DNA of 32,191 nucleotides. Source: Psammoneis japonica (taxonomy: Eukaryota). The translations under genes were made by a program, and so were the position numbers. The notes under the pieces are model-generated. The model saw only the letters and a list, made by a program, of their open reading frames with translations, had not been told where the DNA came from and made no database searches. Of the stretch, positions 3,691 through 31,538 are shown piece after piece (within the stretch, counting starts at the first letter, position 1; every line of letters begins with the position of its first letter). Where the stretch lies: positions 682,001 through 714,191 of the forward strand of contig QPGO01000027.1 of the NCBI GenBank assembly GCA_008632985.1, read 5' to 3'.

Positions 3691-6600
3691 TTATATTACA
3701 GTCCACTTGTTCGGCACAGTCATGAAATACCGCTCCATTGCATTCGTAAAGCGTGCCTTGTACAACGGAGGCTGAATAATAGTCGGAGCTTCACTCCCCA
3801 CAACCATGGGGAGACTCTTTCCGACACGCTCCATCTGCTTCAAAATGTCGTACTGGCGCATAAAGTCTATGATTCCCACTACAAGTTCCATTTTCTCCTC
3901 GTCAATACCAACCAGGATCGAATAATCGAGAACATTGATAATGGATAGAAATAGAGTGTCCTGAAGGAAGTAGAAAAGTGGGTGCGAATCATGAGAAACT
4001 GCAGTACACTGTCGTGAAGCAAAGACACTCGAAAAAGCGCACAAGCACGATGCTTACATTGAGAACACTCATGTGAAATACGGCCTTGGCTCTATCGGTC
4101 AAAGGCAGGGGACGACCATTCGTGAATTCCAAAAAGTCACCATCCAAAAGAGTAGCCATTGGTGCCGGTGTCATCTGCTCAGCTGCGGCATTGCCTTTAT
4201 CTTGTGATTCTGGTTCACTTTCGATAGAAACGGCGGTCGACGTGCCAACAGGAGTGTCCTCGTCGCCGAGCTCAGAACCCGACGCAGTTCGTGCAGCCAC
4301 CTTGTCTTTGGCGAATCGACCGCGAAGTGAACCCTTTAAGTCGAATATCTTCGAGATCTTCCTACCGTAAAAGATGTTCTTCATACACGAAAGAAATATC
4401 AAATGTTCAGCACAGAGAAATCACACAGCTAAACCTTCCGCGCAAGGCAACGTACCTGCATTATTGCGACCTGATTCAAACGTAAGAAAAAATATCAGGA
4501 ATTCATGTGTTGTCGAAGCTAACAAGGAGGAAATTAGCAAGATGAAACTCTCTTCTCACCTGAGTCATTTCACGTTTGCCTGTCTCTCGATCGTGATAGC
4601 CAATCTGATACACGCCCACAATTTTGCATAGAACCGTTGGTAAACCATGAAAGAACGCTTTGCTCAGGTACTCAAAGTAAGCGGGGGCGCAGTCGAGAAA
4701 CATCTGAAGTTCTGTTCTTGAAATGCACTTGATGACAAAGCGATCGTCAGCCGTCCGCGCAAAACTCGCCCCACTCTTTCCTCCACTTGCCGCCCATGGG
4801 AAAGATGACGACAAAGTTTGAATGTAAAATTTCTCCACGTCGCTCGGAGAAGGCTGGGTAGATGATGCTCCACCAGATTGCGAATGATCTTTTCCGGCCA
4901 AGAAGGCTTGGCGTACTGCATGAAATTGAGTAGCCCAGTAGGCGGTGCAAACGAACTTGCATGTTTGTTGTCCTTTTTCGTCGAAATCACGGAAAGTCGT
5001 TTTGATGTGCGACTTATTTCGGAGAAGCATGCGGCGTTCGATATCCTTTTTGCCGTTAGGTGTGGGAGCGGGTGCAGGATTCGGGCTGGATTTTTTAGAT
5101 ACTGACAGTTTTTCGGTTTGCCTGTCTTTCCGACTGGATGGCGGCGGTGAAGATTTGACCCCCTTTCGACTATGGCGGCGCTGCTGCTGTGGTATAGTCG
5201 GATCCTTCGCAATGCCCGTATCCTCCGAAGACCGACTGCTCGCTGATGACTGTGATTGCTTCTCTGTACCAGACGGTAACTCGCCCTTCGAGAACTGCTC
5301 AAACTGTTTGGCATATTCAGCGGTAGAAAGAGAGTATGCTACGACCGTGCTAGGCATGTCATCCATCACAGGAATCACCACACCACCAACTCCAACAGCC
5401 AATCGAGGTCTACCTTGATTGAAAATACCAAGATCGACGACATACGGGTCTAGCTCCTTTCCACCACGATTGAAAAAGCGATTGAATGCTGACTTGACTG
5501 CCCCACCTGGGGTAACGGTTTTGCTCTTTGCACTCTGTGAATTATGTAGGCCAGGGACTGGAGAAGCATCTCTATTATGTCGAGAACCATGTCTTTGGCG
5601 TCCGTTGTCTTGGTGTTGCGCAGCGGGTGTTCCCAGAGACTTCCTCGGTCTTCCTTCGCGGTCGCTGCCTGACTGCAGAGAGTTCATGGGCTTTGAGTTG
5701 TATAGTCTTCTCCTTGACGCAAGAACGTCCGCGTCGACTCCGTCAGCAAAGTCGCCTGTGCCTTCGGCATCCCAATCATCGTCATACTCCTGCTCCTGGT
5801 TCTGCCCCCCGTTGCCGATAATGGTAGGAAGCACCGTGGTGATGTCTGTCATATTGTACTGGGAATAAACCTCATTGAGCTCCCTAATGCGTCTCATGCA
5901 CTCCATAAGATCATCGCTTCTACCATCACCCACAATCCCTGGGACTACATTAGGAGCTATGGCAACGTCACCACGCTGTGCTTCTGCGGCTAGTTTCTTC
6001 ATGGCTCCGAGCGCCTGTCCAATGGCACTTAGTCTCTCATTCCAAGCCGACGTCAACATGAAGAGATATCGCCTCGAGAACCAAGGAAAACGAAATAGCG
6101 CTTCGTTGACAATACCGCCTACATTCCTTGACGATTTCGGCACCTTTCTGCACTTATCAGATACCGAGGCAATTTTATCCTGTAGAGTCTTTGCCGCATG
6201 GTCGACCTCGGAGCCTATAGAGGACAATTCAGCAAGTACCGTCTGAAGATGTTCTGGTCGATTTGCGGCCGATCCTAGGAGCGATCGCGCCTCCCTCGAT
6301 ATCTTCTCAATGTGTTCATCGAAACGAACGAAGAGTTTAGCAGATGACACAGAGATTGTCTCCAAGTGTTGAATCGCTTCTGATCGATGGAACGACTCGT
6401 TGATCGGGAGACTTCTTCGGGCGAACACACCGAATGGCTTCACCCTCTCATACGTGAACCGGGCTGCAAGTTGACCGCAACCGAAATACAGCGTGCCTTG
6501 CGACTGCATTTGGCAGCTACATCTGTGGTCGGGTGAATTCATCAGTGCGTCCCGATTGTAAAATACAGATTCCAAAAATTTGCCAAAGCTAAACTTCCAG

Positions 6601-9600
6601 GTCTCTTCGCCGATATAAACCAACGGCGTAACGACTTTATCACAGTGTCTGCAATAGGTCCAGGTTGCAATCGGGCTGTCGACATCTGGGTTTCCGGCAT
6701 TTTGCAATTCTTCTTCTGAAACTGCCTGAGTCTTACCCCCGGATGCTTGCAGCGGAGACGGTGGAAGCGGATCATCCATTTGCTCAACCTTTCGATGCCA
6801 AAGTGATCAAATCACAATGCATTAGCGGTTTCAACAAAAAATGTGGAGAGATAGCAGTTTACTTACCGTGATGTTGATGAGACCATCGTTGTGGACAAAA
6901 GAAAGTGAATGGTCCAATACAGATTTTTTGCAAGTCGAGTTTTGGCATTTCAGAGACAAGTTGAAGCACGAGTCTCTAAGAAACTGTCCAAGTGACACGT
7001 CTTGGAGTGAATAGTAGCAAATACCCTTGACTTCTGCTGGGCAACACTGTGTTGTGCCAGTCATCCACACAGACGTGATGAGTATTGACTGATGGTCCAG
7101 TGCAGTGACCCTGCCGGAGGCAGACCGCTGGTTGGTTTCGCTATTTCTGCCATTCCAGGGTCGCAGATTTCGTCCATTCGGGGGGCGACCGTAATCGACA
7201 CACAGCGACGAGCTGTAAAGGTGCTCCGGCTTGACCTTGAACGATTCGGGTAGCCTGCAATAGCGTTCTTTAAGGTAGCTAGTCTCCAACTTCAGGTTGT
7301 ACGCAACATTTACCAGAAAGCGAAATACTCTCTTCACTTGTTTGAGAGCAGCTCTACTGGCGCCTCTCAACACAACCGAGCATCCGAGGTGTTTTGGGCA
7401 ACCCTCCAACAGAATGTAAGTTTGAGCTACTCCACGTTTTGCCAGCCCTCGTTTGACAGCTTCAGTGCCATCAAGCACGTGCTCACCCAAAACGTTTGCA
7501 GCCAAGGCAGCCTGGCGCTCGTGGTTGCTCAGCGATGTGTCAGCCAGCAGGTATTCAATTATCCGCGCCTGGCTCTTTGTGCCATTCTTCAACGAACCTG
7601 ATGGGTGCTTCTCAGGTATGCTGCGAATGTCGTCAATCCAACTTTCATTATCTCGGAATGATACCAGACGAAAGCGGCGGCAGTTGCCTGAACGGACGCA
7701 AGAAAAGACGGCTGAGTGAACAGGATATGCGCTTCAGCTTCAGGCGATACCGTTGTTGCTTACCTAAAACGCTCTCGTTGAACTGATTCAAGGTAATGTG
7801 GTCCGTGCTAGAAATAATCGTAGCTCCCGTCTGTCTTGAGATACGGCTCATTAACGTGGACTTGACATGCTGTACAAGCACCACGCTTGCTCGAAGAAAC
7901 AACTCTTGCGCTTTGCGTGACACCATTCTCCCGACCAACAAGATATCCGGTTTCAACTTGAGAATCTTTCCAACCAGAATTTCCATGTACTTTTCTTCTT
8001 GTTCCAAAAGCGTGTCCAAGGAAGCAATCTGATTTTCAGCCCGGGTAAATTCAATACCACCACTCAAAAGCATGATACGGGGGTTGCGAATTTCCTTTGC
8101 CATTCGTTTGTGACTCACATTCTTTCGAAAGACTACGCCAGACAAGTAGGCGCAGTCCTGATGTGACCCACCAGGAATCACTGCAACATTCGAAACACAT
8201 GTAGTGAATAAGATTCTTTCAAAAAGAGAAATCTAGCAACCAGCATTAAAAAAAAGAGCATTACGCACCTTTAACCTTGCAATACGGCCTCAGATCCAAC
8301 AAATCGCCTTCTCGGACATTGGGGTTGACGGTGGCACAACATCGCGTGGCTAACGTCATGAGCGTATTGACCCATTTGCTTAATTCTTTGGGATGTTCCT
8401 TGAGGAGGAGCGGTGCATCCGAAGTCAAGAGGGAGGTTCCTAAGAGTTCCAGGTGTGAGGCTGCCGTGAGTCCCAAGTGACGATTGGCGGCACCGACCAA
8501 CGTTTGCGCATTCCCCACGGACAAGGCGCTGGAGGACGTCTCGGAGGCATCGTTACGAGGACCAAAGGGAACAGTCTTGGCGTCATTATCTGTAATTGAG
8601 GGAGAGTCGTCCGTCAGGACGGGTGCATATGGCGGCGACGCTGGAGCTTCCTTGTTACCGGGTCGCGTGGGATCACGGCCGGTGTGTGGACCTTCTCGTG
8701 AAAGCTGATCCAATGGCGTAGCTGGATGCTTGCTATATTCCAGACGTCTTTGACTCAGTCCACTCAAAACTCCCCCTTCTTCCATTTGTTCCTTTAGAAT
8801 GGGTTGTAATGTTGGTGGTGTCTGTTCTGGTGGTTGCAACAAGCTAGCTTGTCGACTATGCTGTCCTTTGTCGCTCTTGGGGCTGGACGCCCCTCCATGG
8901 TGACTGCTGCTATGCTTAGACGGATTCTGTTGTTGAATAGTGTTGGAAGTGCCTTCAAAGCACATTTTGCAAACACGCATGGTGCTTCGGGTTTCTTGGT
9001 CGGCAAATTCAGACAGCTCGACAAAGTACGCACTACAGTTGGAGCAAAAGACTTGTCCACATAGACGACAGTGATGTCGTCTACGAAACACTGTAAAGGG
9101 AACATCACAAGCATAGCACTGTTTGCACAGCTTGTCTGGCATCCAATGCTGCCGGTCGTCTTGCTTGCGAAATGAAAAGGACCGCGGTGTCGTTGGCTCT
9201 GCCGCCGTATCATCCTTGCTATCCACTCCCGTGCTTTGTCGACCAAACGTTGGAGATAATAAATATTTCTTGACTGAAGAGGTTTGTGGCGGTGGTTCCT
9301 TGGCCATTGGTATGACTCCACCGTCGACCCACTCGCGTCGTTGAGAATCGTTCCATTCGTAAAAAGAAGTTTTCGTTTCTACAGTTTTGTTCTTTTTTCG
9401 TTCTTCTGGCGCAGCCGATGACAGCGACGATGTGGATGACTTTTTCCACTGTTTGGGAATAAGGCAAGTATTATTTTCGCGATCCTTCCACAACCCATCC
9501 TCGTCCTCATCCCAACCCTTGCTTTCTGACGTCTTTTGTTGAACCTGCTCCTGCTGTTGCTTTGGGGCTACTCGTTCGCCACTAGTACCCCACGACGCAC

Positions 9601-9787
9601 TTCCCTGATACGAGTCTTCTTCGTCACCGTCAAAGCCAACTACTCCACTGGCAACATTGGTTCCATAAGCGGGGAATTGCGAAAGCAGCTTGTCGGCCAA
9701 CTCGTCTTCGTTGTCTGTCAGGAGGGCAGTGTCGTCGTCTGATGAGAAAACGTCCTTGGGAGGAGGCTCATTTAACCAGCTGAACAT
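3691..9787 (-). CDS. FAB1: 1-phosphatidylinositol-3-phosphate 5-kinase (FAB1/PIKfyve)
   Basis: FYVE finger (WMPD..CYAC..RRRHHCRLCGQVFC), Cpn60/TCP1-like domain (KVKVIPGG..GVVFRKNV), PIPK domain (GGKSGASF, FDLKGS, DYSILVG, GIIDF, PTII.P..YK.RF). GT-AG introns that restore the frame: 8181-8268, 7688-7763, 6789-6866, 4471-4559, 4379-4455, 3961-4057. Confidence 0.95.
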
Positions 9788-11430: not shown

Positions 11431-14400
11431 ATGACGACGTCGGATGAAACTGCCACCGCTACCTCTCCCTTTTCCCAAATCCCGGGACGGCCGTCGTTTC
11501 GTGCTGCCAATCTCAATGCAATCGCCATGATTCCTTTGCTCAGTACCGACAGGGACGCGGGCGTTGAACTCGACAGTCATTCGGCACGGTCCTTTCACAT
11601 GCTGCTGTCGTCTCTGCGACGCTATGCAAGAATGAAGAAGCAAAATGCCATGTCTCCTCGGAACAACAATGATAATAACAAGAGTTTTGAATTGGACGAT
11701 GTCGATTTTTCAGAAAATGACATGCAGGTCGATAGCAGCAACAACAATGTCATGTTGGTGATTCCTCATTCGCAATTAACGCGACCGGGGGATTGGCGCT
11801 ACGACAGCACGCCGTTGCGTAGTTTTCATTGGTCCAATGGCTGTCAACGCATGATTTGTTTTGATGGTCGTCCCACGTGTGGACGCATGGCTCATGATCG
11901 GCTGTTGAATGCCAGTGTCGGTCGGGATTGGATTGATCTGGTCCCCAACCGAAGGACTGCGGCTGTTGTGGGAATATTGAATATAAAGGATTGTATTTCC
12001 GAAAGTGACTTGGATAAGGCTGAACACGAGTTGCAGCAGTGGGCACAACGATATAGTGCTCCGCCGTATGAAGTTACGGCGCATGGGCGGTCCTTTGCAA
12101 GAGATGAAGTAGTGACGAGACTCTTTATTTTTGATTCCTTTGATGAGGAATGTCAAAAGCGAATTGACTTGTCCTCCACCAATTCCAGAAGCGACATGGT
12201 GGCGTTTCCGCCCAGCGATGATGCTCACCATCAAATGATGGATTTGCATTTGAATATTGTATTGAATGATTTGGCGGTTGCGATTTTTAGACAATTGGAG
12301 ACCAAGATTCGAGAGTCGGACAATACGGGAAAAGACAAGGGAGCCGCAGGAAGAAAAAATACGCGCAAGCCTGGAACAGACGAACCCGTCAATACCAAAG
12401 CCATGAGCATTACGCAGATTGCCTCCGTCGTGAATGCCGACAATGAATTGGCCATTGCAGACGACAAGCAGCAAGGCGGCCCCGGCAAAAAGGCTCGCAC
12501 GGCAATCAAGTCCATGACGGAGTCGGCCGGTCGACTCATGCCGCATCGCAAGCAAACGGCACAACCACAGCTGCTGACACCGCTGGATGATGTATGGGAT
12601 TATTCGGAATTGTCTCAAAAGGACGCGGATGCCTTTAAGAAGCGTGATGTCGGGCGGCGTGAGAAAATGGCTGCGGACTTGTCACTCTTGGCAGGATCGC
12701 CCATTGATGCGTACGAACGTTACACGAAAGCTGCGGAATTGACAAAGGCGTCACACGATCCCTTGTGGTATGCAGCGTCCCTAGAGGGATGTGCCGCATC
12801 GTTTGTGGCAATGGCCGAAGCGGGTGGACACTGTGTCGATTCGTATCTCGAATCCAATTTCCAATTGGATTCGGACATGATGGTCCTCGCCAACGCGGCC
12901 AAGGACGACAAGACGAGCAAGACTGCCCTGGCGGTGGACAAGACCAAAACCACGCTACCGGCGGCAGTTCGTGCGCTTTGTGAAGAAGCGCTCAGTATTT
13001 TTAGTCGCCACCCCAAATTGGCTCCCTTTCACGCAGAACTTGTGCTCAAGCTAGCGTGGTACACGGCCGAAGTGGAAGAATCGCATTTGCGGTGTCGTTG
13101 GGGAGAACAGGACGGATGCTATAGTGGAGAGTCTGGTGAAGCACCACGATGGGAACGAACATCCGTGGCACACGCCGAATCTCTTTCCAAAAGCCGCGAG
13201 GGCAAGGAGCTCTTGTCCGCCAACACCATGACTCGATTAAAGAATTGGTCCGAACTCTTGCACCGTGCCGCCTCGACGGGTGGGTTGGATCCACGCACCC
13301 GGGCCGATGTCGCTGCCGCGTGTGCTCGCCTGTGCCTGACGGGAATGCGAGCCACCCATTGGGGTCCACCTCGTCGTCTCTGTCTGCACCGCAAAGCTGC
13401 GTTCTTTACCGTCGTGTCAGCAGAAGCGCTGTCGCAGTGTGGCGAAAGCGACGATGTGAATGCAGACGGGCTGTGGTTGGCAGCATGCCAAGCGTATACC
13501 CGAACTGGTAACAGTTTCAAGGAGGGGTCGCACTATGGTTGGGCTACTCTCCGAGCGTGCACTCTGCATGCACTATCTCAACAGCGTGACTACTTTTCTT
13601 CGGATGCAGGTAAGTCATGGTGCGTTAAGACAAGTAATTGCAGTTCTTTATACTGAGTTCTCGATTTTCTTTACAATGCTTTCTACAGCGGCGGAATTGT
13701 TGTTGGCGCTCTTGGGTAAGATTTCTCCCGAAGAGACAAAGGACGCGGCCATGTTGGATCGGATCAATTCGTCGGATAGTAGTATGGAAATCAAGGAGGA
13801 CAGCCAGCACAGCCTGGGAGCGGTGGGAGAAGGGCAACCCATTGTGGAAGCCGATATCTCCCAAACCGTCGCGAGTGCCTTTGCAAAGCGAACAAGCCTA
13901 GCGTCCAGAAACTTTTTCTCGACGGAAGCAAAATCGTCGTTGCTCACTGTCGCGCAATCCAAGTGGACCAACGACGAGCCCATTCCGCCAGTACCGCTGC
14001 CTCTGGTAGACCCTAATCATATTGTCGCCCTCGCTAGTGGGCGTAGCAACAATTCCATGGAAACCCTGGACGCATCCCTTTCGCGGTCACTCATTTCGCT
14101 GAATTGCGTGTTACCCAGAGTGCAACCTTATTCCTGCGGTGTTGCTCAGAAGCGGTGTATTGAGCTCATTTCTGATATCCGACAGGAGTTGCCCACAATT
14201 TCGTCAGCCTCTGATGACCTGGAGAGGGAGACATTCCCAATCTATGGTGAACGTGACAAACCGTTGCCGCCACCTCTTCACATTGTCACGGCCAAGGCTG
14301 TCAAGATCGACTCGCACTTGCTGTTGGAACGGAGCAAGGCTCTCGGATTTGCGGGCAAGGCGACAGGGGCGATGGCAACCTTCTTCAATCCCTACGATAG

Positions 14401-18554: not shown

Positions 18555-19025
18555 AGACGAAACGAGAGAGGATTGTCGAGAGTGGAATCTGTATTATTAT
18601 TAGATATTTAGCGGTGAAAATGATTGAGTTGGCGAAAAGTGACACTCTTGATACTGCTTTGCATAATGTACTGTACGTGATTTTCGATGAATGCATACTC
18701 TGACGATGCAGTTCGCGCTTCTACAAGGCTAACTTGAATTGAATAAAGAAATCTCTACAGTACGAGGCAGTGATGCGCGAGAGCTAGTGCGTCAAAGTGT
18801 TGTGTAGTTGCTTGTTTGCTTGTCTTTGCTGTGCGTCACAGATTGCATCGCGCTCCTACTGAGTTGTTCTGGGTTCACTTGCTAGCTTGAAGCTTTTTGG
18901 AGCATCGCCTTGGTGATATTGCCGTTCGACTAGACATGTATTGATTGGATCCAGGCAACAGGCAACCGCGACCTTCAACAGGATCTCCTCAAGAGAAGAA
19001 CTCGAAAGAAGTTAAATGTTATTGG

Positions 19026-21100
19026 TTACAGGATTCTTCTAGCTGACCACTCAAACCCGGCATTATCCAATGCCGCTATCCGTGCTTGGGTCAATGAACC
19101 AGGCTGTTTTTTATCTTGACTTTGTTTGTACATTCTGCGCTGGGTCGCGATCCAACGTCCGAGACGCTTGTTTTCCGAGTAATTGGTTGGCACATGGCAA
19201 TGTCAATGAACAGCTCTAAATTGCATTAACTCATCATACATGGCATTCCAATTACTCGTTTGCAGTGACCATTCGAATCCAGCTCCTTCCAATGCGTTAA
19301 TGCGACCTGGCGTCATTGAACAAGACTTCTTTTTGTTTTGGTAACGCTTGTAATGTATTCGCTGCTGAGAAATCCACCGGGCGAGTCGTTTGTTCTCCGG
19401 ATAGACATTCGGCACGCGACAATGCCCGTGAATGGCTTTGAATCGCAAAAGCTCATCAAACATAACATGCCATCCCTTTCCTTGTACCGGCCATTCAAAT
19501 CCTACATCTTCCAATGCTCTTCCCCGGTCTGTCGTCAATGCGCATGGCTGGGTATTGTCTTGACAGCTTTTGAAAGCTGTACGTTGCCTCGCAACCCAAC
19601 TATATAGGGATTTATTCTCTGAGTCATTAGGGACACGACAATGCCCATGCGTAGCTTTGAATTCCAACAACTCATTGAACCAGTCATTCCATTTCCCCGT
19701 TGTTGTCGACCACTCAAATCCGGCATCTTCCAATGCTCTTATCCGATCACGCGTCATGGGACAAGGCTTCTCTTCGTTTTTAAACTTCTTGTAGTCGGAA
19801 CGCTGTGTTGCGACACAATTGCCTAGCCGTTTGTTTTCAGAGTACGGACACGGGACACGACAATGGAGGTGAATTGTCTTGAATTCCAATGACTCGTTTA
19901 ACATCAAATTCCACTCCTCGCTGATAGCGTCCCTGCGAAACCACTCGAATCCTGCATCTTCCAATTGTCTTATGCGATCAGGTGTGATCTGGCAAGGCTT
20001 GTTGTTTTGATGACGCTTAAAGCACGCACGCTGGTTCATCACCCAATGTGCGAGTCGACTGTTTTCCGAATAAGATGTTGGCACTCGACAATGCCCATGA
20101 AAAGCTTTGAATTCCAACTGTTCGTTGAGCATGCGCTTCCAACTGGAATTGTCAAGAGCCGTTCTTCCTCGCGGCACTGACCACTCAAATCCTGCGTCTT
20201 CCAGAGCTTTCAGACGATCCGGAGTCATTGAGCAAGGCTTGCTTTTGTTTTGACAACGCTTGCAGTTCCTGCGCTGTGTTGCGACCCAATGTGCGAGGCG
20301 TTTGTTTTCCGAATGAGACATTGGGACATGACAATGCCCATGAACAGAGCTTTGAATTCTAACAGTTCGTTGAGCATGCGCTTCCAACTGGAATTGTCAA
20401 GAGCCATTCTTCCTCGCGGCTCTGACCACTCAAATCCTGCGTCTTCCAGAGCTTTCAGATGATCCGGAGTCATTGAGCAAGGCTTGCTTTTGTTTTGACA
20501 ATGCTTGTAATTCCTGCACTGCGTCATGACCCAAAGTGCGAGACGTTTGTTTTCCGAACAATGCTGCGGGACACGACAATGTCCATGAGCAGCTTTGAAT
20601 TCTAATGGTTCATTGAGCATGTGCTTCCAACTGGAATTGTCAAGAGCTGTTCTTCCTCCCGGCACTGACCACTCGAATCCTGCATCTTCCAGAGCTTTCA
20701 GACGATCTAGAGTCATTGAGCAAGGCTTGCTTTTGTTTTGACAACACTTGCAATTCCTGCACTGCGTTGTGACCCAAAGTGCGAGGTGTTTGTTTTCCAA
20801 ATAATGCCATGGGACATGACAATGTCCATGACTGGCTTTGAGCTCCAGCAATTTGCTGAGCATGAGGTGCCACTGAGCATCTCGGGGAGATTGGTTGAGG
20901 TCGAAGCCGATGTCGTTCAGCTGGGCTCTTTGCTCTTCTGTGAGAGGTGACTTGTGATTGCTCAATTTTTCTTCAAATCCCTTGCATTGTTGGCTTGTCC
21001 AACAGCCCAAAGAAGAGCTTGTCGGTGCAATGAGATGCCCATTCTTTTCTTTGAAGTCAACCAACTCTTGGAGTCGACGTTGCCACTCATCTTTGTGAGC
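19026..21100 (-). pseudogene. Multi-HA-domain (9 units) protein pseudogene
   Basis: Nine W..M..EL.EFK..HGHC.VP..Y.EN..L..WV..QR...MT..R...LE..GFEW units. Disruptions: 2-bp insertion near 20345, premature TGA at 19203-19205 (H*HC for HGHC), and many Y>C/H and R>C/H changes. True stop TAA at 19026-19028. The 5' end is not resolved. Confidence 0.85.
20150..20880. repeat. Three highly similar 243-bp tandem units (81 codons) within the HA gene
   Basis: Anchor CCACTC(A/G)AATCCTGC at 20181, 20426 and 20669. Spacings are 245 (includes the 2-bp insertion) and 243. Confidence 0.9.
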
Positions 21101-21575
21101 TGCAGCGGGTCTCAGTTCTAGTTGTGCTGTGACAGCCCACGAACACGTTCGACATTGTTTACGTTTGAACAATAAATCCTCATAACACGATCTGCCAATG
21201 GGTGGTGAGTGGAAACCTCTGCTTTTGTGGACTGAACCAGAAGCGAAAAGGCCTCGTTTTTGTTTGCACAGAAGCAGATTGCGAAGAACAAAACTGCAGA
21301 AAGAGATGACTGAGCCAGCTTCCAAAGAGACATTGACAGGGACTTCATACTTAGGTAAGATGCTGCGGTACAGTTGCGTCAGAAGTGGAATGTGCTTGGT
21401 ACAGCAGTGCTTGTTCATGCTCATCATGTGATCGCATATGTGCGCTGCGTGTTCAGTGTGCGTTTCGTGCGCGTCGCGTGGTCCAGGTCGGCAAACGGAC
21501 ATTGCGTGCATCTAGGCTTTTAGTCTGCCAGATTCAGATAGTCTACCGGTTACCGGTACGTTGGTATTCTTGACC

Positions 21576-22349
21576 ATGGCAACGGAGACGACAACCACCA
21601 CAACTCATGGACCGGATCCCGCCGTGATGGAAGCGATTGAGCGTGGAAATGCCGTCGTATTTTTTGATGTGGTTCTTGGGGAGGGGAAAGATTCTACGGC
21701 AGAGTTGGGTCGCATCAAACTAGAGCTCTTTGTCAAGGATGTAAGTACCGAATGGTGTGGCACTAGCACTCCTGTATTGTGCAACGTCTTATTTTGATCT
21801 GCCTTATTGACTCATTTTCATACAGTGCCCCAAGACTTGCGAAAATTTCCGTCAATTCTGCACCGGTGAATACCTCCAGAACTCTCAGCCTACCGGTTAT
21901 TTGAATTCCACCTTTCACCGTGTAATCAAAGACTTTATGCTACAAGGCGGCGACTTAATCAACCACGATGGTACAGGAAAGACAAGTATATATAATGGTG
22001 GTTCATCGTTTGAAGATGAGAATTTTTTTCACAAGCATGATCAACCCGGGACCCTTTCCATGGCAAACAGCGGACCAAATACGAATGGTGGGTTTCTTTC
22101 GTTTTCATTTCGTTGTATCGGTTCGTTTTCTCAGTCTCTTCGGGCAATTTAACGTGTGCTTAAACAGGGTGTCAGTTTTTTATTACCACCGCGAAAACCA
22201 GTTGGCTTGATGGGAAGCATGTTGTGTTTGGAAGGGTATTAGACGGACCGAGCATGTTGACCGTACGGAAATGTGAAGCAGTGCCTGTATCGGGGCAAAA
22301 TAATCGACCACGAATACCTATTCGGATTGTGCAATGTGGGGAACTCTAG
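21576..22349 (+). CDS. PPIH: Peptidyl-prolyl cis-trans isomerase H (spliceosomal cyclophilin)
   Basis: [83 protein letters not shown]. The [10 protein letters not shown] and TNGCQFF variants are PPIH-like. Introns 21741-21825 and 22088-22167. Confidence 0.88.
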
Positions 22350-22513: not shown

Positions 22514-25237
22514 TTAATGAGCCAGTATGAACATGACAATGAGAAATATGGAATAAGCGACAAAGAAAAGGATGGCTGCTGCGTAGTCCACTGTCCTCAA
22601 CTTTTTCAGCCTTCTTTTCTTCTTCGAATCAGCCTCATTAAGTCCCTGAGGAAGAAGCCTATGGCTCCACCATGTCAAGCTCGTCAGTCGCTTTTTTCGT
22701 CCACTGCGTTTTCGCTCCCTAGTGGGGTGAGCGGTCGACTCCTCCAATTGCTCATTATCAACGTTCACTTCTGTGTCAAACCCAACGGTATATTCGCGAT
22801 CTTCCCTCTGAGTACCACTTTCCAGGGCGTTGATGCTGTTGTTATTGTTGTTGCTGTCGTCAATCAGATTACGGGTCTCTTCAATGTCTCCGTGCTCTTC
22901 CCTCTCACCCTCGTAGTCATTGTGAGCGTAAAAATACAACACAATAATTGACTCGACAATTCCAAACACCACAAACATTTTAGATCCAAATGAAAGGCGA
23001 TAAATCCAAAGAAACTCCTGCGTGACAGGAGTCGAGTCTGCCAATGTAATGTCTTGAGCAACAATCACAAAGAGAATAGACGAACCTGTATGAAAAAAGA
23101 TTTTGTGTGGTGAGATGGGAATATCATAGAGGCCATCTAACAAGATGCCACCGTGAAGTAACTCACCGTAGCCCAGTCGTTCTCCCAGATGAAAGTCGAC
23201 GAAGAACATTCCAAATGCAAGATATGTAAAAATAATGTAGAGAGCAACAAACAGGTACACGTAGTATCGTTTCGCCCTCGCAAACGTAAAATCAAAACGA
23301 ACTAGCTTGTTCTCAAACCCAGACAGTTGTTCAGTTCTGAACGACACTCTTGTTTTGCGAATGTCGAGCTTGTATTCTTGGTAATTCCAAGAGCTGTCGC
23401 TTACCCGTGCGCTGTACTCAACGGATTTATTGGCAGGAACATAATTGACCCGATGATAGAGAGGATCCATCGTGCCACCAAACTCCATGTGACATTCTAC
23501 AAAAAGGCAAAACGAAGAGTGAGGAAAACGGCAAAAGCCTGAAGTGGACGTGATACGGCGCTTACCTGTCTTATCAAAGGGAAAGTCTTCGATACCAGAG
23601 AGATCACAAATAGCTGCTAGTACTCCTGTGCGCCTCCATTTCACATATCCATCATAGCGCACTGACGCATGTGCTTCGGGCAAGCTTTGAACGCCCCTTA
23701 CCATATTTACGAGCTCCATGTTTGGAACCCACAGTTCTGTCTGTTCCGCGTCAACCGATGCCCTGAAAGAAGATCGATGGCAACCCCCAATAAAGGGTTC
23801 CCACACAAGACGTGGATCATACCATTCCAACTCTAGCGACATTAAAATCTGCATCGAGTTTGTCTTTACTTCAATCTCCAATGCGTGCGAGATATCCAAA
23901 GAAATCTTGACGTCGACAGCATCTTTGCTGCTGAAGAAAGGATCTTCTTCCTTTGGTGATGGATCGACCGGAGTTATGGTATTGTACTTATCGACAAGAG
24001 CATCATGGATCTGGCTTTCACACTCGTAATTTGCCCGCGTGTCATCACAACACGCCTCTTCAAAGAACGCACGGCCAATCTCACATGCGTAGGTCGAGAC
24101 GTCCTCTTTTATCAAGAGGGCGTCAAGCTGGCTACATGACCATCCATCAGTATCCGGATAGAGTTCTAGCCAATCCTTTGGGTACTCTCGAATTGTGCCG
24201 TTGAAGAGTTTGGCTTCTGTAGCACCGCAAATGTTGCAGTCGTCCGACAAGGGCAAAAAGTCAAGTTCGAGGTCCACCTCCTGGATGGTCACGCCTTGAC
24301 TTTGAATTGTCTCTGCATCCAAAATAGAACTGTTCTCGTTAAGTCGATATTCTGGAATACCAAGAGGGTTATTAATCACAATGTCTCGCAGAATAAAGTG
24401 TACGTGGCCGCCTTGATCTGAGTCAACGAGTTGAATCGAACACAGTTTTGCATCATCGTTGTTTTGGGTGCTACAGCGAAACAGCATTGCACCATGTCGA
24501 CTCCAGTAAACGTTTCCATTGGGTAAAATTATTGCCGTTGTGTCGACGAGTGGCTCTCTTGTTCCCTGATCATGAGGGACGAGATGCGGCGTCCAAATGT
24601 CGGTGCGTCGGACCTCAAACCCTGTGCACGGTGCAATAGAGGAAGAACTCCACCTCAGCCGTTCATCCGTCCATTGTAAGTGGAGAGATCCTACTATTTC
24701 AATGGCACCACCATCAATGCCATGATCGACGATATGCATTTCATCAAAGAGCTCCACTACCAAGCTAGCATTCACCGCAATCCCTTTGGAAATGGGTGGA
24801 ACGTACTTGTCATAACTCGCATTGCTGCCCGTGAGCAGAGCCTCTCTCATTGTAGCTTCACATTCAAACAAAGGAGGCACATTATCACAACATTGTCGGA
24901 AAAGCCAGTCACGTAGCGCAAGACAGTCAAACCCTTCGTTTCGTTCCGCATAAGTTGCCCAATCCGCACAAGTAAGGTTGTTGTTCTGCACCATGGCTTT
25001 GCCTGCTGTTGCGTTATCAAAGGATACGCGGGCAGCCGCTTCTGTTGTTCTGGGACGAGTATTGTTTAGAATCAAAAATCCAGGCAGGCAAATGTTGCAT
25101 TGACCTGTATTATTCTGTTCCTGAAGCGTCCTTCTTGGTGTTGCGATGCTTTGGCTCGCAACAGTACCGACAAAATTAAGAATCGCCATGAGATATGCTG
25201 AAAGAATCAGAACGTCGTATCGCTTCAACTTAAACAT
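22514..25237 (-). CDS. Pentameric ligand-gated (Cys-loop-type) ion channel subunit with a duplicated extracellular region
   Basis: Signal peptide, two ligand-binding-domain-like blocks (WTDERLRW..IWTPHL..NGNVYW and WYDPRLVW..LWVPNM..YDGYVKW..C..EDFPFD..C), four TM helices with GERLGYG before M2. Two stop-free in-frame introns, 23497-23565 and 23086-23166, are read through by the ORF track. Confidence 0.85.
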   Translation of the reverse strand: MFKLKRYDVLILSAYLMAILNFVGTVASQSIATPRRTLQEQNNTGQCNICLPGFLILNNTRPRTTEAAARVSFDNATAGKAMVQNNNLTCADWATYAERNEGFDCLALRDWLFRQCCDNVPPLFECEATMREALLTGSNASYDKYVPPISKGIAVNASLVVELFDEMHIVDHGIDGGAIEIVGSLHLQWTDERLRWSSSSIAPCTGFEVRRTDIWTPHLVPHDQGTREPLVDTTAIILPNGNVYWSRHGAMLFRCSTQNNDDAKLCSIQLVDSDQGGHVHFILRDIVINNPLGIPEYRLNENSSILDAETIQSQGVTIQEVDLELDFLPLSDDCNICGATEAKLFNGTIREYPKDWLELYPDTDGWSCSQLDALLIKEDVSTYACEIGRAFFEEACCDDTRANYECESQIHDALVDKYNTITPVDPSPKEEDPFFSSKDAVDVKISLDISHALEIEVKTNSMQILMSLELEWYDPRLVWEPFIGGCHRSSFRASVDAEQTELWVPNMELVNMVRGVQSLPEAHASVRYDGYVKWRRTGVLAAICDLSGIEDFPFDKTGKRRITSTSGFCRFPHSSFCLFVECHMEFGGTMDPLYHRVNYVPANKSVEYSARVSDSSWNYQEYKLDIRKTRVSFRTEQLSGFENKLVRFDFTFARAKRYYVYLFVALYIIFTYLAFGMFFVDFHLGERLGYGELLHGGILLDGLYDIPISPHKIFFHTGSSILFVIVAQDITLADSTPVTQEFLWIYRLSFGSKMFVVFGIVESIIVLYFYAHNDYEGEREEHGDIEETRNLIDDSNNNNNSINALESGTQREDREYTVGFDTEVNVDNEQLEESTAHPTRERKRSGRKKRLTSLTWWSHRLLPQGLNEADSKKKRRLKKLRTVDYAAAILFFVAYSIFLIVMFILAH

Positions 25238-25633
25238 TTTTTAAACAGTTTCTTCCTATGGAGCGCCTTCTACTTTATAGATCTGCAGTATAAACTTCGT
25301 TGGCAATTTGTTATTGCTTCTCAAACTCGAAAAGCAACGATCTCATCGTCTTCTCATGTTGTTGTTGCTGTAGTTGCAGATCTCCCAGTGTTCGCGAGCG
25401 AACATAAAAATACACACATCTCTGAAGTAAAATATAAAACGTACGACTGGATTTTCCCACGATCCGATCTTTCAGTCACGAGCACTAATTGAATAGAAAA
25501 AAAGTGAAAGTTGATTATTAGCAAATTATGGAATGAATATGGTAAAATGTTAGTACTCTATCTTTCAAGCATCTGTTGCGGCCAGAATTCTCAATTCTTT
25601 TCTCAAAAGATTTTCGGTTCTCACATCGTCGCC

Positions 25634-26710
25634 ATGACGAAACAAACCGCTCGGTTGAGCAGCCGCTGCTTTCTTCTTTTCGCAGCGGTGCTCTTCGTGA
25701 GATCGTCATCTTTTGTATGCGACGCCTTTTCTTCGTCGTCCACCGACAATAACAATGGCTTTTCCTTGTCGGAATACTGGAAAGCACGTGCATTAGAAAC
25801 TTCCAATGCTCTGGATTGTTCGCGGTTTCATTTTCAAATTTTATTTGTGGACGACGACAATAGCAAGGGACGAATTGCTCGGGGTTTGTTGGATAGAATT
25901 GCCGAATACAATGACGCCATGTGCGTTCTGTTTCCGGCTTGCGCCACAATCACACAAGCCTACCGCGCACCCCGCGATGCAGCTGCACCGCAACAAGCCC
26001 TTGACGTGTGCGAAGAGCTTGGACTGTGTCCCCATGTCAGTGAAGAAATTGGGACAGCGTTTGATTTATCGTGCTTGGACGAATATGACTTGATCATTTG
26101 TATGAATGACGACATTCGGGACTTGATTTTGAGATCGATCCATGCCGATTTCGACTATTACGCTCAAAAGTGCCATTCGTTGGGCGAGTTTCTGAGTTTG
26201 GATTTCTGTTCCAGCCTCTCGCCATCATCCTCATCAAAGTCGTCCTTACTCGACATGTTGGAACAAGACTTGGTTGAGCGTGTGGCGCCCTTTGCGGATT
26301 TCTTGGTGAGCAACAGCAATCTCGACAAACAAGACCTCTTCTGTCTGACAGACGTGAGCGATCGTCGTGCTGCTGCTCCATATATGATTTTAAACGCAGA
26401 CGGAGCCGCCGTCCCCAATACGGCCGCTTGGTCCGTGGCGGAAGCGGGAATGATTCTTGCCACGGCGGGTGTCACGCGCTTTTGTCTCGATGCCATGGAT
26501 TCGCAGTTGAATTCTTCTCTGGACAGCTTGCTCGAGCGTAATGTCTACCAGCCCGAGCACTTGCGTCTTGCGTGGGAAACGGTCGATGCTCAATTGCAAC
26601 GTTGCAATGCTGCAGTACATGGATACTTTTCACCGCAACAACGAAAGGCCAAGTTTGTGCTGCACGTTGCCAACTTGAAGGAACGGTTCAAGAACAAGCT
26701 CAAACCTTGA
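25634..26710 (+). CDS. LMW protein-tyrosine-phosphatase-fold protein, probably plastid-targeted and catalytically inactive
   Basis: Signal peptide ending VCDA|FS followed by a Ser-rich transit-like stretch. FQILFVDDDNSKGRIARGLL corresponds to the ILFVC.GN.CRS..AE motif, and DEYDLIICMN to the DLI..MD motif. Confidence 0.6.
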   Translation: MTKQTARLSSRCFLLFAAVLFVRSSSFVCDAFSSSSTDNNNGFSLSEYWKARALETSNALDCSRFHFQILFVDDDNSKGRIARGLLDRIAEYNDAMCVLFPACATITQAYRAPRDAAAPQQALDVCEELGLCPHVSEEIGTAFDLSCLDEYDLIICMNDDIRDLILRSIHADFDYYAQKCHSLGEFLSLDFCSSLSPSSSSKSSLLDMLEQDLVERVAPFADFLVSNSNLDKQDLFCLTDVSDRRAAAPYMILNADGAAVPNTAAWSVAEAGMILATAGVTRFCLDAMDSQLNSSLDSLLERNVYQPEHLRLAWETVDAQLQRCNAAVHGYFSPQQRKAKFVLHVANLKERFKNKLKP

Positions 26711-27079
26711 CATTGACAACAACTAGAATAAACTTAACTGGAGCACTGCACACAACAGAAGCCGACAAGGCATCATTATAGTGGCTAGGACGACGTATGG
26801 AGCACTCCCAGGGACAGCGAGTACGACTTTGTATGGTCAGTGGGCTTGAGAAATATCAACGAGTAATCTGAGACCAACGAAACTATTAGTACAAGCTTGA
26901 AAAGATATGGAATGGAACTGTGACAACAGCTTGAGGGTACACTAGAACCCACCTGATAGGCTAGGGCTAGAACTGTCGACTTCGAAGATTTTCCTACCGT
27001 ACTACTGCAGAGCTGCTTGCGTTTACTGCCGACGCTCTCACCAAAAAGGATTCCATGACCATCGTTGGTCGCGAGTTCG

Positions 27080-28630
27080 TCACTCCGCCGCCTCAAACTC
27101 GCTCAGCGTCGTCACTCGGCCCCTCGTGTGTGCTGCCACACTATAACAGGTAGAGCTCTCGCAGCCCACCGGTACAACCTCCCAAGCCGGGAGTGAGCAG
27201 CCTCCACGAGAGAGCTTCTGCACTTCTTTGAACATTTTGCACTGCAGTCCTGACTCGCTCCCTCTCACAATTGAATGAAATGAACACCCTCTGTTGCTCC
27301 AGCTCTCTGCTGGTGAGCTGAAATCTGGCAGACACTCTCTGAGAGCAGCAGCCAGACCTTCCATCTGTCTTTGCTCATCTTTGGCTGCCAATGGCAACCT
27401 GGAACTCTAAGAAACCAGTGGGCAATTCACAGGGGCAGAACCATTCTCCTCACATGAAATCATGGCCAACCTCTTGTGAGAGTCCACACTGTGTCAGTGA
27501 GTCATTGTGGGCCATGGCACACAGCCTGTGTCATCCACTTTTGATCAAACTTTGACCCAAAAAGTGTCACCTCAAAATCATCAACAACATGCCCCTGGTT
27601 GTCCACTGCATTGTGTTCCAAGCACAATGTTGGGGTGGAGTCTCATCTCATTGACAGAGTGCTCCAGCCATGTCAACATTTTGGTTGACAAAAAGGAGTG
27701 GAGCATGAAGTGCGCACTTTTCTGGCATGCTTGGAGCTGTCTGTCTTTGTGGCCTGCTGCACCCATGTGCCCAGATCACAGATCACCCTTGCTGCTCTGG
27801 GCCAAAGCCCAGTGTGCAAAACTGTTGTGCGCCATGTGCTTCTCACAATCTGCAAGAGAAAATGGGCATCACCTGAGCTGCTGAGACCCCACAGCATCAA
27901 AAAAATGCTGGTGGTGAGGCACATCAATGGGAGGACAAGGTCTCTAAAGCAGTTGTGAGGCTGCTTTGCACACTGACCTTCTGTTTTAGCAACATTGATG
28001 GTCTTTGCCAAAAGGTCTGACTGGCAACAGCATGGCTGAATTTGCTCAAAAGATGCCCCTGGCTGCACATGTGTGTGCCTCCCTCTTTCCCCGCAGGTGA
28101 CCACATGCCGTGGCACCAAGATCTGCAGCAACAACAGCATGCTGGGTGATGCTGGCCATGGCATTGTCAGGTCCCCCATCACGAGGATGTGGAGCAGTGT
28201 CAAGAAAGGCAAGAACATGCTGTTGACATCTGGGCATCTGCAGCAAGAGTGCTCAACTCACTTTCTTGCACCAGCTGCTCAATGAGCAACTTTGCACTTG
28301 GAGCACTGCCGACGAGGAGGCCTCCTTTTTTGGCTTGCCAGAGCCAAGTGCAAATGACCCTGAGAGATCATTTTGCATGAAGCTGCTGGGACCACTTGTG
28401 TCTTTGGGCTGACTTGCATCTTCACAACCCAGACTCTCTCTTGTCACCTTCAGGAACAAAAGGGGGGGTCAACAAACACTGGGGGCTTCCCACCCCTCCT
28501 TTCTGTGGGCTCTGCTGCCGTGCTTCTGCACCCACAAATTCTTGCAGATCATTTTCTCTGTGCTGGGAGGGACTTGAGTGCTTGTGGTGCCACTGCTGAG
28601 AGCCAAAATCTTTCAGCCATTTTTCTGCTC

Positions 28631-28673
<43 letters not shown>

Positions 28674-28772
28674 TGCTGCTGTCTCCTGCTCCTGGGTTTT
28701 CAAAGCACAGCCCACTTTTTCCCACTTTGTTTCTTGTGCTTTGAACTTTTCTTGGTGCCTGCCTGGTGCCAT
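27080..28772 (-). pseudogene. Heavily mutated relic of an unidentified protein-coding gene or element ORF
   Basis: ORF fragments 28253..28459, 28046..28246, 27581..27766 and 27080..27397 share one frame. Several breaks are TGA (compatible with CGA>TGA), but in-frame TAA/TAG also occur. No domain recognised. Confidence 0.35.
28634..28671. repeat. (CT)19 microsatellite
   Basis: Perfect CT dinucleotide run, followed by short (GCT)n. Confidence 0.95.
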
Positions 28773-29058
28773 TGTTCTTTGTTGGATGATTGTGAAATCA
28801 AAGGTCAAAACTGCATGGTGGTGTTTGTTGTGTTTCTCGGAAAGATGTTCGTTTGTGCCAGTCATCTCACAGGTTGTGCTGCACCGGCAGCGAGGTTGCA
28901 CCATGCAATGCAATGATTTATTGCCAACGCGAGCGTGAGAGGTTGGCGCTCGCTGCGAAGCTTCTGATCTGATTGGCACGGCTGAATCACTCTCATGATG
29001 GCAAAGATTTCATGATCGTGGCTGGTTGACGACAAGCCCATAACCCACATCAACAAAT

Positions 29059-29186
29059 TACTTCGAGCCAAAGTAAGCTAAATGGTTAACGATGTTCCTT
29101 AATTAAAAATTCTACTTCGGCTCAAAGACAGCTAAATGGTTGACGAAATCCCCTAATTAAAGACAGCTAAATGGTTAACGATGTAG
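29059..29186. repeat. Short direct repeats, core AGCTAAATGGTTRACGA x3
   Basis: Cores at 29076, 29130 and 29165. The first two share an upstream TACTTCG..CAAAG and a downstream TAATTAAA. Confidence 0.85.
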
Positions 29187-29639
29187 AGTTGTGGGCACAA
29201 GTAAAATCGAATAGATAAAACAGGATGTCAAATACGAAATCATCATGTGTTTTCTGCACCAGTTAACTACAGCATTTACATGTTCATTTGGAAATGTCAA
29301 TTGGTTTTCTCTCTCTACATTCAATGCTCGCAACAATGCTGGTTTTCAGATCTCTGCATGGGCATCCAATCAAAATGGACAATGCACACCTTTTGCAGCA
29401 AAGACAAATCAACCCATCTGGCATTGCAGCATCCTTTCAATCCACACTCAACAGAGGCGAGCACACGCCAAAGACTTGCAGAGAGAACAAAAGGCTCTTG
29501 AGCACACAAAACAAGAACAGAGTTGATGCACCCCTCTTGTTTTGAAGCTTGGGCCCTCAAGTGGCGCATGGTTTGGCTGGCTCTGCAGCTGGTTGGGAGG
29601 TTGATGGCTTTTTCATGACTCACAGCTTGAGGCTTCTTG

Positions 29640-31000
29640 TTGGCACACGAGCTCGCCCGTGCAATGTCGCCTTTCGAGCCTGCTGCTTGCTGGAGCTGAG
29701 ATCATGTGGACAGCTCTCCACATGCCTGGGCTTTGTCATTCAGGTGCTCAATCACAAAATCATCTTCTCTTGCACTGTGGCTGCTTGGCTTTCATCAACA
29801 AAATCTGCAGCAGCCCAGGCCATCCTGAGCACTCGTGACAAAACAGCTCTCCTGCAAAACCCTTCTGCTTGTCCCCCCCCCAGAGTGGTTCTTGGCAACA
29901 GTGCCACCCACAAACCAAGCTGCAGTCACGACTGTTTGCTGAGCTGCCAGCTGAGAAATTAAAACCAAGGTTGAGAGCTGAGCATGAGACCTCCTGTGAG
30001 ATGTGCCTGCAACAAGCCTCTCCACACAGCCGTGCTGCACATGGGGTCTGAAGCAAGAGGCACATGTTTTGATGCACAAGCACATGTGCAATGTCACCTT
30101 TGGAGCACGCTGCTCACTGGAGCTTGAGCAGAGGACAGCTCTCTGTGTGCAAACCATGTCTGTCAGATGCTCAGTCACAAAAACATCTTCTCTTGCTGTG
30201 GCTGCTTGGCTTCCATCAAAAGAAAGTTCCCACAACCCAGGCTGCCCCAGCCACCATTGACAGAATGGCTCCTGCAAAACTTTTCTGCATGTTTCCCTCC
30301 TCCCCTGCAGAGCTGCTCTTGGCAACAGTGTTGTCTGCATGCCAGGCTCCAATCAAGATGGTCTGCCAAGCTGCACCAGCTGAGATGCCCAACTTGAGTT
30401 TGCAGGCTCCCAGAACCACAAGACACACAGAGGGCAGCAATGCACGTCTGGTGCTGGTGGCAATGCTGAGCTCTTCATTTGCAGCTTCCCAGGGGCACAC
30501 CCACACCTTCAGAACACCAGCACAACCACAAGAGTTGCCCTCCTTGTGCAGTCACAACAGCACGTTGCACCATCTGCAAAAGGAGTGCAGGCAGCCTGGC
30601 TCCTGGGCTGCATGCTGACCCCACATGCCACAGCTTTTCACAGCTGAGCAAGAGACGCCAGTGTTTCAAAAACCCTGAGCCAAGGTTGGAGCTGGCAGGA
30701 GCTNNNNNNNNNNNNNNNNNNNNNNNNNNNNNNNNNNNNNNNNNNNNNNNNNNNNNNNNNNNNGTGTTTGTCATTTGTTGGCACAGGCAGAACAACTTTG
30801 AGCTTGCTGTTGGACAAAAAAGCTCTGAGTGAGGTTGGGCCCAAGAGTCATTGAGCATGCTGAGTGCACAACCTGAGACATGCCAGCAACAAAACTCTCT
30901 GCACAGCAATGCAGCCAGAACCTCTCTCACTCTTCTCTCAAGAGCTTGCTCAGGACAACACACCAGGGTTTGAAAAGCAAGCAGCCAAGCTTGCATGTTT
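29640..31000. repeat. Degenerate ~427-bp tandem duplication/array of unknown origin
   Basis: GTGCAATGTC at 29659 and 30086, with collinear shared blocks (GGACAGCTCTC, CATCTTCTCTTGC, CTGTGGCTGCTTGGCTT, CTCCTGCAAAAC, TCTTGGCAACAGTG). Weaker similarity continues past the gap (~30875 vs ~29998). Confidence 0.7.
30704..30763. other. Assembly gap (60 N)
   Basis: Run of N characters. Confidence 0.99.
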
Positions 31001-31538
31001 TTCTTCTCCCTGGCCCTCCCCAGATGCAGCCTTTGAGCCAATGGTCACCCTGAAGTTGCAATGTGCACCCAGCTTTTGCCCCTGCGGCAACCACCCCAGA
31101 CCACAAAGAAGAAGCCAATGAATCTCTGGCCCTGCTTGCATGGTCAATTTTTGTGTGTGCATCGAATGGTTGAATCCCCTCCTTTTTCCCTTTTCCGTTA
31201 ATCGGCCACGAATATGAAAAAATTGCCCTCATGATAATGCACCATGATAGATCCTCTTGCTTTTGTCGCGCTTTTTTGCGTGAATGTCACAGTACAAAAT
31301 CTACATACGTACAGTACGTGAGTTCGAGCTCTCGACAGTACATAAAAGATCCACTCAACATACACTCCCACCAACAAGCAACAAGCAACACTCAACACCC
31401 AACACCAACACACCAAGCAAACAGGACGGAACTTACTATTCCAAGTTCACCAAGAAAAGAGAAACGATACATTGCATCTTGGTCGAATTGATTCCTCCCA
31501 TGCATTCTTTCGATTGATGAACGATACTAAAAAATAAC

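Follow-up and report, generated by a model that had tools for sequence, protein, structure and literature searches.

Results

The HA Repeat Gene and Its Young Copies

The window, by which we mean the whole stretch of 32,191 nucleotides (nt) that was analysed (Psammoneis japonica, assembly GCA_008632985.1, contig QPGO01000027.1, positions 682,001 to 714,191 of the forward strand), carries a repeat gene of the HA domain (PF03457) with nine units on the minus strand at 19047–21100. The 5′ half of this gene and two blocks about 6 kilobases (kb) away, Blocks A and B, have undergone a regional and strand-symmetric loss of TpA and CpG dinucleotides into CpA and TpG. The loss is visible in the composition of the three patches, in their sharp boundaries, in the mass balance between the dinucleotides lost and gained, in the direction of change that can be read at many CpG sites and in two Tyr codons, and in the absence of the same signature from related loci. 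A TpA-directed mutational process probably made the three patches.

An earlier reading of the sequence alone, hereafter the sequence-only reading, had placed nine HA units in a minus-strand gene, and this was borne out by Pfam, by unit alignment and by nhmmer, which recovered 9/9 units. The two open reading frames (ORFs) of the gene matched PF03457 with E values of 3.3e-40 and 1.1e-85 and with scores of 136.6 and 282.3 bits, respectively, at a gathering cut-off of 28.4. Downstream of an ATG at 21511 the units follow one another on the minus strand as U0 (21100–20897), U1 (20896–20669), U2 (20668–20426), U3 (20425–20181), U4 (20180–19941), U5 (19940–19710), U6 (19709–19491), U7 (19490–19269) and U8 (19268–19047). 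TRF reported a young tandem array on the same strand at 20041–20831, with a period of 243 nt, 3.2 copies and 87% matches. Each period of this repeat starts midway through an HA unit and ends midway through the following one. According to the pairwise identities the young copies are mosaic, the first third being common to U2, U3 and U4 and the remainder common to U1, U2 and U3.

The reading frame of the gene is not intact. A 2-nt insertion in U3 (CT within GCTCTG, 20345–20350, minus strand, alignment columns 76–77) causes a +2 frameshift at about 20348 and leaves the two ORFs in different frames, and reading the ORF through U8 revealed an in-frame TGA (19203–19205, minus strand) in place of the Gly of HGHC. 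At this stop site, 88.6 of the 166.3 depth in the sequence set X1 had a Gly codon and the remainder had the base of the window, while the spliced run X2 had Gly at 30/30. The X1 depth over the HA gene was 3–5x baseline, which indicates that close paralogues exist. A 1,179-nt X2 contig covering 19042–20194 differed from the window by 74 differences and 12 gaps; to judge from its sequence, it comes from an expressed gene closely paralogous to the old HA units. At the TGA of U8 it encodes Gly, and it has CTG where U5 has TCA. A single HA-protein query against metagenomes found no relative.

Composition of the Three Patches

The patches were detected by a sliding scan, with expected counts taken from the baseline of the window and with symmetrised odds ratios (rho). 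The HA patch, from U0 to the start of U4 (20072–21118), contained 5 TpA where 38.7 were expected and 40 CpG where 61.6 were expected, corresponding to losses of 87% and 35%, respectively. Block A (27174–28918) contained 3 TpA and 15 CpG, with 64.4 and 102.6 expected, and Block B (29317–31198) contained 1 TpA and 19 CpG, with 67.3 and 107.1 expected. Over their approximately 3.6 kb the two blocks together held 4 TpA against 132 and 34 CpG against 210, losses of 97% and 84%. The rho values for TA, CG and CA/TG were 0.07, 0.65 and 1.49 in the HA patch, 0.02, 0.14 and 1.77 in Blocks A and B, and 0.55, 1.01 and 1.16 in the baseline, respectively. The block edges were sharp, within about 50 nt, and the spacer between the blocks (28919–29316) had a normal composition, with 22 TpA and 16 CpG in 398 nt. 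The old half of the HA gene (19013–20071; 1,059 nt, same domain) held 38 TpA.

The depletion of the HA patch was also found when duplicated sequence was counted once: no more than 3 TpA then stand in 539 nt, where 19.3 would be expected (P = 6e-6). The patch takes in U0 and the beginning of U1, neither of which belongs to the triplication, and extends 290 nt past the array; most of its TpA loss preceded the triplication.

In each patch the gain in CA + TG roughly matched the loss of TA + CG. Per 100 nt, CA + TG was up by about 4 and TA + CG down by about 5 in the HA patch, and the corresponding values for Block A were about 7.4 and 8.5, with 21.9 CA + TG per 100 nt in Block A against about 14.5 in the baseline. 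Block B contains an internal duplication (29600–30490) whose copies lie about 423 nt apart and are identical at 228/322 positions (71%). In purine/pyrimidine coding their identity rose to about 90%, because most differences are transitions (63/94). The commonest adjacent double difference was the CA<->TG doublet, found 10 times, as expected if a palindromic pyrimidine-purine step decayed independently in both directions.

Blocks A and B gave no Pfam match at E ≤ 1 beyond noise among 18 ORFs, no HA signal by protein hidden Markov model or nhmmer, no Rfam family and no tRNA. Self-matching in purine/pyrimidine coding found no terminal repeats, apart from the internal duplication of Block B. A run of 60 N lies in Block B at 30704–30763 and is either a gap of the assembly or a stretch that was withheld. 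The spacer is TpA-rich and unmutated and contains 54-nt tandem repeats ending in TAATTAAA; it may have been inserted later or may be an element that is protected.

Controls and Independent Sequence Support

Metagenome contigs carrying 66 diatom-like loci (509 kb) around relatives of Fab1 were used as controls. The signature was defined over 500-nt windows as rho TA <0.15 plus rho CA/TG >1.45. It was found in 0/4,798 control windows and in 34/317 windows of the studied stretch, all of them within the three patches. The control loci had overall rho TA values of 0.44–0.85, and since they span this range, the baseline value of 0.55 in the window is ordinary for such organisms. The proposal of the sequence-only reading that a mutational process rather than base composition is at work was thereby supported, decisively so by the patch counts and by these controls, evidence that lies outside the comparison of the HA copies.

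Contigs of X1 covered 23153–28617 of the window with 5 other letters and 20716–21602 with 1 other letter, and thereby reproduced Block A and U1. As these stretches are reproduced, the patch composition is not an assembly artefact. Among the indels listed, small ones distinguished the window from all X1 depth at 18309, 21223, 21436, 27538 and 27558; these are either assembly indel errors or the mark of a slightly different clone.

Codon States at Homologous Positions

In the codon reading and alignment of the minus strand, the Tyr of YSEN was TAT in U1 (20803–20801), TGT in U2 (20560–20558), CAT (His) in U3 (20315–20313) and TAT in U4 (20072–20070), exactly the two TAT, one TGT and one CAT that had been described from the sequence. 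Alignment columns 110–111 accordingly read TA, TG, CA and TA in U1 to U4, and TA in 3/4 old units. The first Tyr of QRxxY, at alignment column 162, was TGC (Cys) in U1 (20750–20752) and U3 (20262–20264), while TAC was retained in U2 (20507–20509), all on the minus strand; TAC was also present in three old units. The degenerate forms reported for QRxxYKRYQ were verified as QCRNCKCCQ in U1, QCRNYKHCQ in U2 and QRRNCKRCQ in U3, with the intact QRIHYKRYQ in U7. Columns 110–111 and 162 therefore support the claim that one copy turned TpA into TpG and another turned it into CpA, while CpG decayed as well.

CpG sites gave the same two-way pattern. At columns 19–20, 56–57 and 167–168, one copy has CA, another has TG and a third retains CG, and at columns 144–145, which also show CA in one copy and TG in another, the old units have CG. 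Columns 61–62 (the ELLEF codon) and 170–171 (the second Tyr of YKRY) have CA versus TG with an ambiguous ancestor.

Conservation in the family was judged from 462 HA domains in 103 proteins (102 homologues and the window ORF at 1–969), retrieved with a profile made from the units of the window itself. Profile position 16, the first Leu of ELLEF, was Leu in 421/439 domains and in none of them Pro, Ser or Gln, and it is replaced by Pro in U2, Gln in U4 and Ser in U5. The Arg of QR, at profile position 46, was Arg in 423/446 domains and Cys in 1, and it is Cys in U1 and U2. The Tyr of YSEN was shared among Tyr (107 of 375) and Trp (106 of 375), with 12 Cys and 21 His, and the first Tyr of QRxxY was Tyr in 161/354 domains, with 4 Cys and 30 His. 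Conserved HA residues can thus polarise most of the examples given in the sequence-only reading. They cannot polarise the second Tyr of YKRY, which is Tyr in no more than 32/233 domains and was rejected as a polarised site; its TGT is common to U1, U2 and U3 and represents at most one event.

For the first Leu of ELLEF, U3 has CTG (20365–20363), U2 has CCA (20608–20606) and U5 has TCA (19892–19890), as previously described, and U4 has CAG, a state absent from the earlier description. The codons stand, but the CTA ancestor proposed for them was set aside: once the CAG of U4 is counted, CTG or CCG ancestors cost no extra steps, and CTA is not more parsimonious than either.

Transition Events by Dinucleotide Context

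The ancestor of the 243-nt unit was reconstructed by majority rule, corrected where at least 3 outgroup units matched the minority state, and minimum events were counted. The young copies showed 32 transitions and 9 transversions in total. Fourteen transition events fell on the 28 CpG sites, the largest class, and 3 on the 4 TpA sites (columns 110, 111 and 162). The C or G of CpA/TpG (41 sites) had 4 events, the T or A of CpA/TpG (41 sites) had 6, and the remaining 129 sites had 5, which gives 15 transition events on 211 sites when all classes other than CpG and TpA are pooled. Differences were therefore not evenly spread over dinucleotide contexts: 17/32 transitions lie on the 32/243 sites that are CpG or TpA, as the sequence-only reading required. 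In one-sided Fisher tests, CpG exceeded the non-TpA rest with p = 8e-8, and TpA exceeded the non-CpG rest with p = 0.0019, the latter being a post hoc comparison on 3 events at two Tyr codons. The event rate at TpA was at least equal to that at CpG among the young copies, and TpA changes went both ways, to TpG and to CpA, at one dinucleotide; the sample is small. Up to 6 further events that appear as CpG creation may be CpG decay with misinferred polarity, and several of them probably are.

Other Genes in the Window

A Fab1/PIKfyve gene lies on the minus strand at 3989–9787 and is spread across several ORFs (FYVE, Cpn60_TCP1-like and PIP5K), which indicates short introns. A piece of it was 54–65% identical to diatom proteins, the best named hits being from the pennate diatoms Seminavis robusta and Nitzschia, so that by its proteins the DNA is that of a stramenopile resembling pennate diatoms. 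The window also carries a TRAPPC9-like gene, a Cys-loop ligand-gated channel gene (22514–25237, minus strand; Neur_chan_LBD, E 8e-30), and a second HA gene with a single domain, which is on the plus strand at 1–969 and runs off the window start. The first kilobase of the window had a rho TA of 0.35, somewhat below the baseline.

X2 skips 13607–13685, 22087–22166, 23084–23164 and 23497–23565, with GT..AG or CT..AC ends, and X1 spans 13607–13685. Although X2 is labelled 'DNA?', it behaves as RNA contigs because of the GT..AG joints, and the skipped stretches are therefore introns of the TRAPPC9-like gene, the Cys-loop channel gene and a neighbour. X2 left 20340–21006 and 27010–29000 uncovered, to which we attach no weight.

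Discussion

A Probable Regional Mutational Process Directed at TpA

We consider it probable, at roughly 65%, that the three patches were made by regional hypermutation in which TpA is converted to TpG or CpA and CpG is converted to TpG or CpA, a reading that rests on the sequence. Such a process would act on both strands alike and drive a patch toward sequence free of TA and CG, the TpA changes being A:T to G:C transitions. The 5′ half of the HA gene would represent an intermediate stage in which unconstrained TpA has already been lost and the last two TpA, in conserved Tyr codons, are disappearing copy by copy. It would be because these last TpA vanish one copy at a time that polarity is still readable in the HA copies. 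Blocks A and B would be the end state.

The two parts of the process would have different causes. The CpG part may be deamination of 5-methylcytosine (5mC) in silenced, methylated DNA. Since CpG decay yields TpG and CpA, whose ordinary transitions would create TpA, the TpA loss needs a cause of its own, which may be a separate activity aimed at that chromatin too. This could be adenine deamination favouring a 5′ T, as proposed for Bigelowiella natans, or a modified thymine at TpA that pairs wrongly with G. 5-Hydroxymethyluracil occurs in dinoflagellate DNA, and the idea of a thymine modification is based on this. TpA is its own reverse complement, so that sequence alone cannot separate adenine deamination from thymine modification.

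As to what marks a region, the HA patch shares one of its edges with the tandem duplication but runs on beyond the array, and the multi-copy old half was spared. A tentative extension, which we regard as possible but doubtful, is that diatoms have a chromatin-directed editing defence. It would act on DNA that is silenced or duplicated, deaminating methylcytosine in CpG and adenine in TpA until neither TA nor CG is left, and so kill gene duplicates and invaders.

Alternative Explanations

The patches might instead owe their composition to inheritance, the blocks being foreign or satellite DNA with a native bias, or to selection against TpA, for example in UpA-sensitive RNA or at the site of a TA-targeting transposon. 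The blocks do lack recognisable genes and RNA families, their sharp boundaries are those of a discrete insert, and the baseline rho TA is already low at 0.55, a value typical of related loci. The HA patch, however, belongs to a host gene family, and its sister units within the same gene have normal TpA. Moreover, TA or CG survives in some copies where others have TG and CA at the homologous site, CA<->TG doublets separate the duplicates of Block B, and the mass balance agrees with a conversion. The broken gene and the non-coding look of the blocks make RNA-level selection improbable. We regard an inherited or selected composition as unlikely.

It might also be argued that CpG decay is the sole real bias, through deamination of 5mC in a methylated pseudogene or repeat, and that the Tyr to Cys and Tyr to His changes are chance transitions under relaxed selection. 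CpG changes do dominate, with 14 to 20 of the 32 transitions, the HA gene is broken, there are just 3 TpA events, and CpG methylation of diatom transposons has been described (PMC9998398; PMC6604790). This explanation is contradicted by the patches, because it leaves the 5 TpA found where 38.7 are expected in the HA patch, and the 4 found where 132 are expected in the blocks, without an explanation. Transitions from its TpG and CpA products would raise TpA rather than remove it, and in the HA patch the proportion of TpA lost exceeds that of CpG. It is distinctly unlikely that CpG decay acted alone.

A repair bias could operate with no editing enzyme, if mismatches at palindromic pyrimidine-purine steps in silenced DNA were resolved toward CpA and TpG. 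An analogy is offered by very-short-patch repair, a proposed cause of CTAG depletion in Escherichia coli. Such a bias would suit the strand-symmetric outcome and the joint effect on two palindromic dinucleotides, but it too needs a regional trigger, and the CpG part is already explained more simply, so that we find it very unlikely. An assembly or sequencing artefact is scarcely credible: the small indels between the window and X1 and the U3 frameshift, for which no confirmation was visible in X1, could be taken as signs of one, but X1 reproduces the long stretches given above almost letter for letter, and no mode of sequencing error clears kilobases of TA and CG on both strands.

Several observations weigh against the hypermutation that we prefer. 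The polarity of TpA changes comes from a minimum of 3 and a maximum of 4 events at two Tyr codons that were chosen post hoc, and the ancestor of the copies was reconstructed from three copies with mosaic relationships. TpA has also been created within the patch, by a TTG to TTA change common to U2 and U3, where G stands in each of the five outgroup units, and by a CCG to CTA change in U1, and these created TpAs persist. When the old half was compared with paralogues, 32 differences (among 40 listed of 188) included 4/18 transitions at CpG, one TA<->CA change and one codon with three changes; among the differences listed, the spectrum of the old half is therefore unlike that of the patch. The old half lies at 3–5x X1 depth yet is not depleted of TpA, so that a multi-copy state is insufficient as a trigger. 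Blocks A and B matched no Pfam or Rfam family. The controls are gene-proximal metagenome contigs in which repeats are under-sampled, and the sequence is present in one sample only (three run rows, none of them listed as RNA).

Comparison with Known Systems

The nearest relative of the proposed process is the TpA hypermutation of integrated giant-virus (nucleocytoplasmic large DNA virus, NCLDV) and virophage DNA described in B. natans (Mettrop et al., bioRxiv 10.64898/2026.01.13.699255). According to this preprint, 230/231 mutations in two integrated viral regions of mutation-accumulation lines were A>G or T>C, all GC-biased changes fell on TpA, and the authors proposed an ADAT2-like adenine deaminase as the agent (10.64898/2026.01.13.699255). 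As far as the preprint describes it, the B. natans process resembles the one considered here in changing TpA to TpG and to CpA on both strands and in being regionally restricted. Both also combine low rho TpA with high CpA + TpG: the 5% cut-offs of the preprint lie at 0.43 or less for rho TpA and at 1.52 or more for rho CpA+TpG (10.64898/2026.01.13.699255), and the patches have values of 0.02–0.07 and 1.49–1.77, although the definitions of rho may differ.

The differences are also clear. The process was observed directly in the mutation-accumulation lines of B. natans, whereas here it is read from sequence; the host there is a chlorarachniophyte and here a diatom; and the targets there are viral inserts, whereas here they are one host gene and blocks that match no known family. 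Here CpG is erased along with TpA, while the main text of the preprint mentions neither CpG nor diatoms. The changes in the young copies are not nearly all at TpA, since 14/32 transitions are at CpG, 15 are other transitions and there are 9 transversions besides, and they are old differences rather than de novo mutations.

Fungal repeat-induced point mutation (RIP) also ruins duplicated DNA by regional transitions, and the HA segment does have a tandem triplication and Block B a duplication. RIP, however, turns CpA into TpA and enriches TpA, whereas TpA is removed here, and the HA patch was poor in TpA before the triplication and reaches beyond the array. A RIP-like direction, from CpA to TpA, was rejected given a patch rho TA of 0.02–0.07.

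CpG decay through 5mC has a clear counterpart, as CpG to TpG or CpA is the most frequent change among the copies and CpG is locally depleted; unlike the process considered here, it spares TpA. In Phaeodactylum, DNMT5a-dependent CpG methylation of repeats (PMC9998398) and a mutagenic effect of CG in mutation-accumulation lines (PMC6604790) have been reported. A-to-I hyperediting by ADAR, as characterised in the preprint (10.64898/2026.01.13.699255), likewise shows A>G change in a 5′-T/U context, but it is RNA editing that leaves a one-strand signature in retrocopies, whereas here both strands are changed at the same dinucleotide in genomic DNA.

Significance

Our literature search found no report of TpA-directed hypermutation or of TpA-free patches in diatoms, and the one paper that turned up on HA domains in diatoms was unrelated. 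The B. natans preprint was the sole precedent found for TpA-specific hypermutation of nuclear DNA. The dinucleotide and the direction of change are shared with it; the other lineage, the coupling to CpG erasure and a host gene as the target are new here. The HA copies provide a rare internal record of direction, in which ancestral TA stands beside its TG and CA derivatives, and the case adds a host gene family as target and visible intermediate stages to what was known.

A second, distant lineage would make TpA hypermutation a candidate for a widespread mechanism of genome defence. It would help to account for local TpA deserts and for the fast death of duplicated genes, and it points to a possible natural activity that edits adenine, or modifies thymine, in DNA. 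If the enzyme were shared with Bigelowiella, TpA editing would go far back in the stramenopile-alveolate-rhizarian (SAR) group and would offer DNA adenine deaminases from a natural source.

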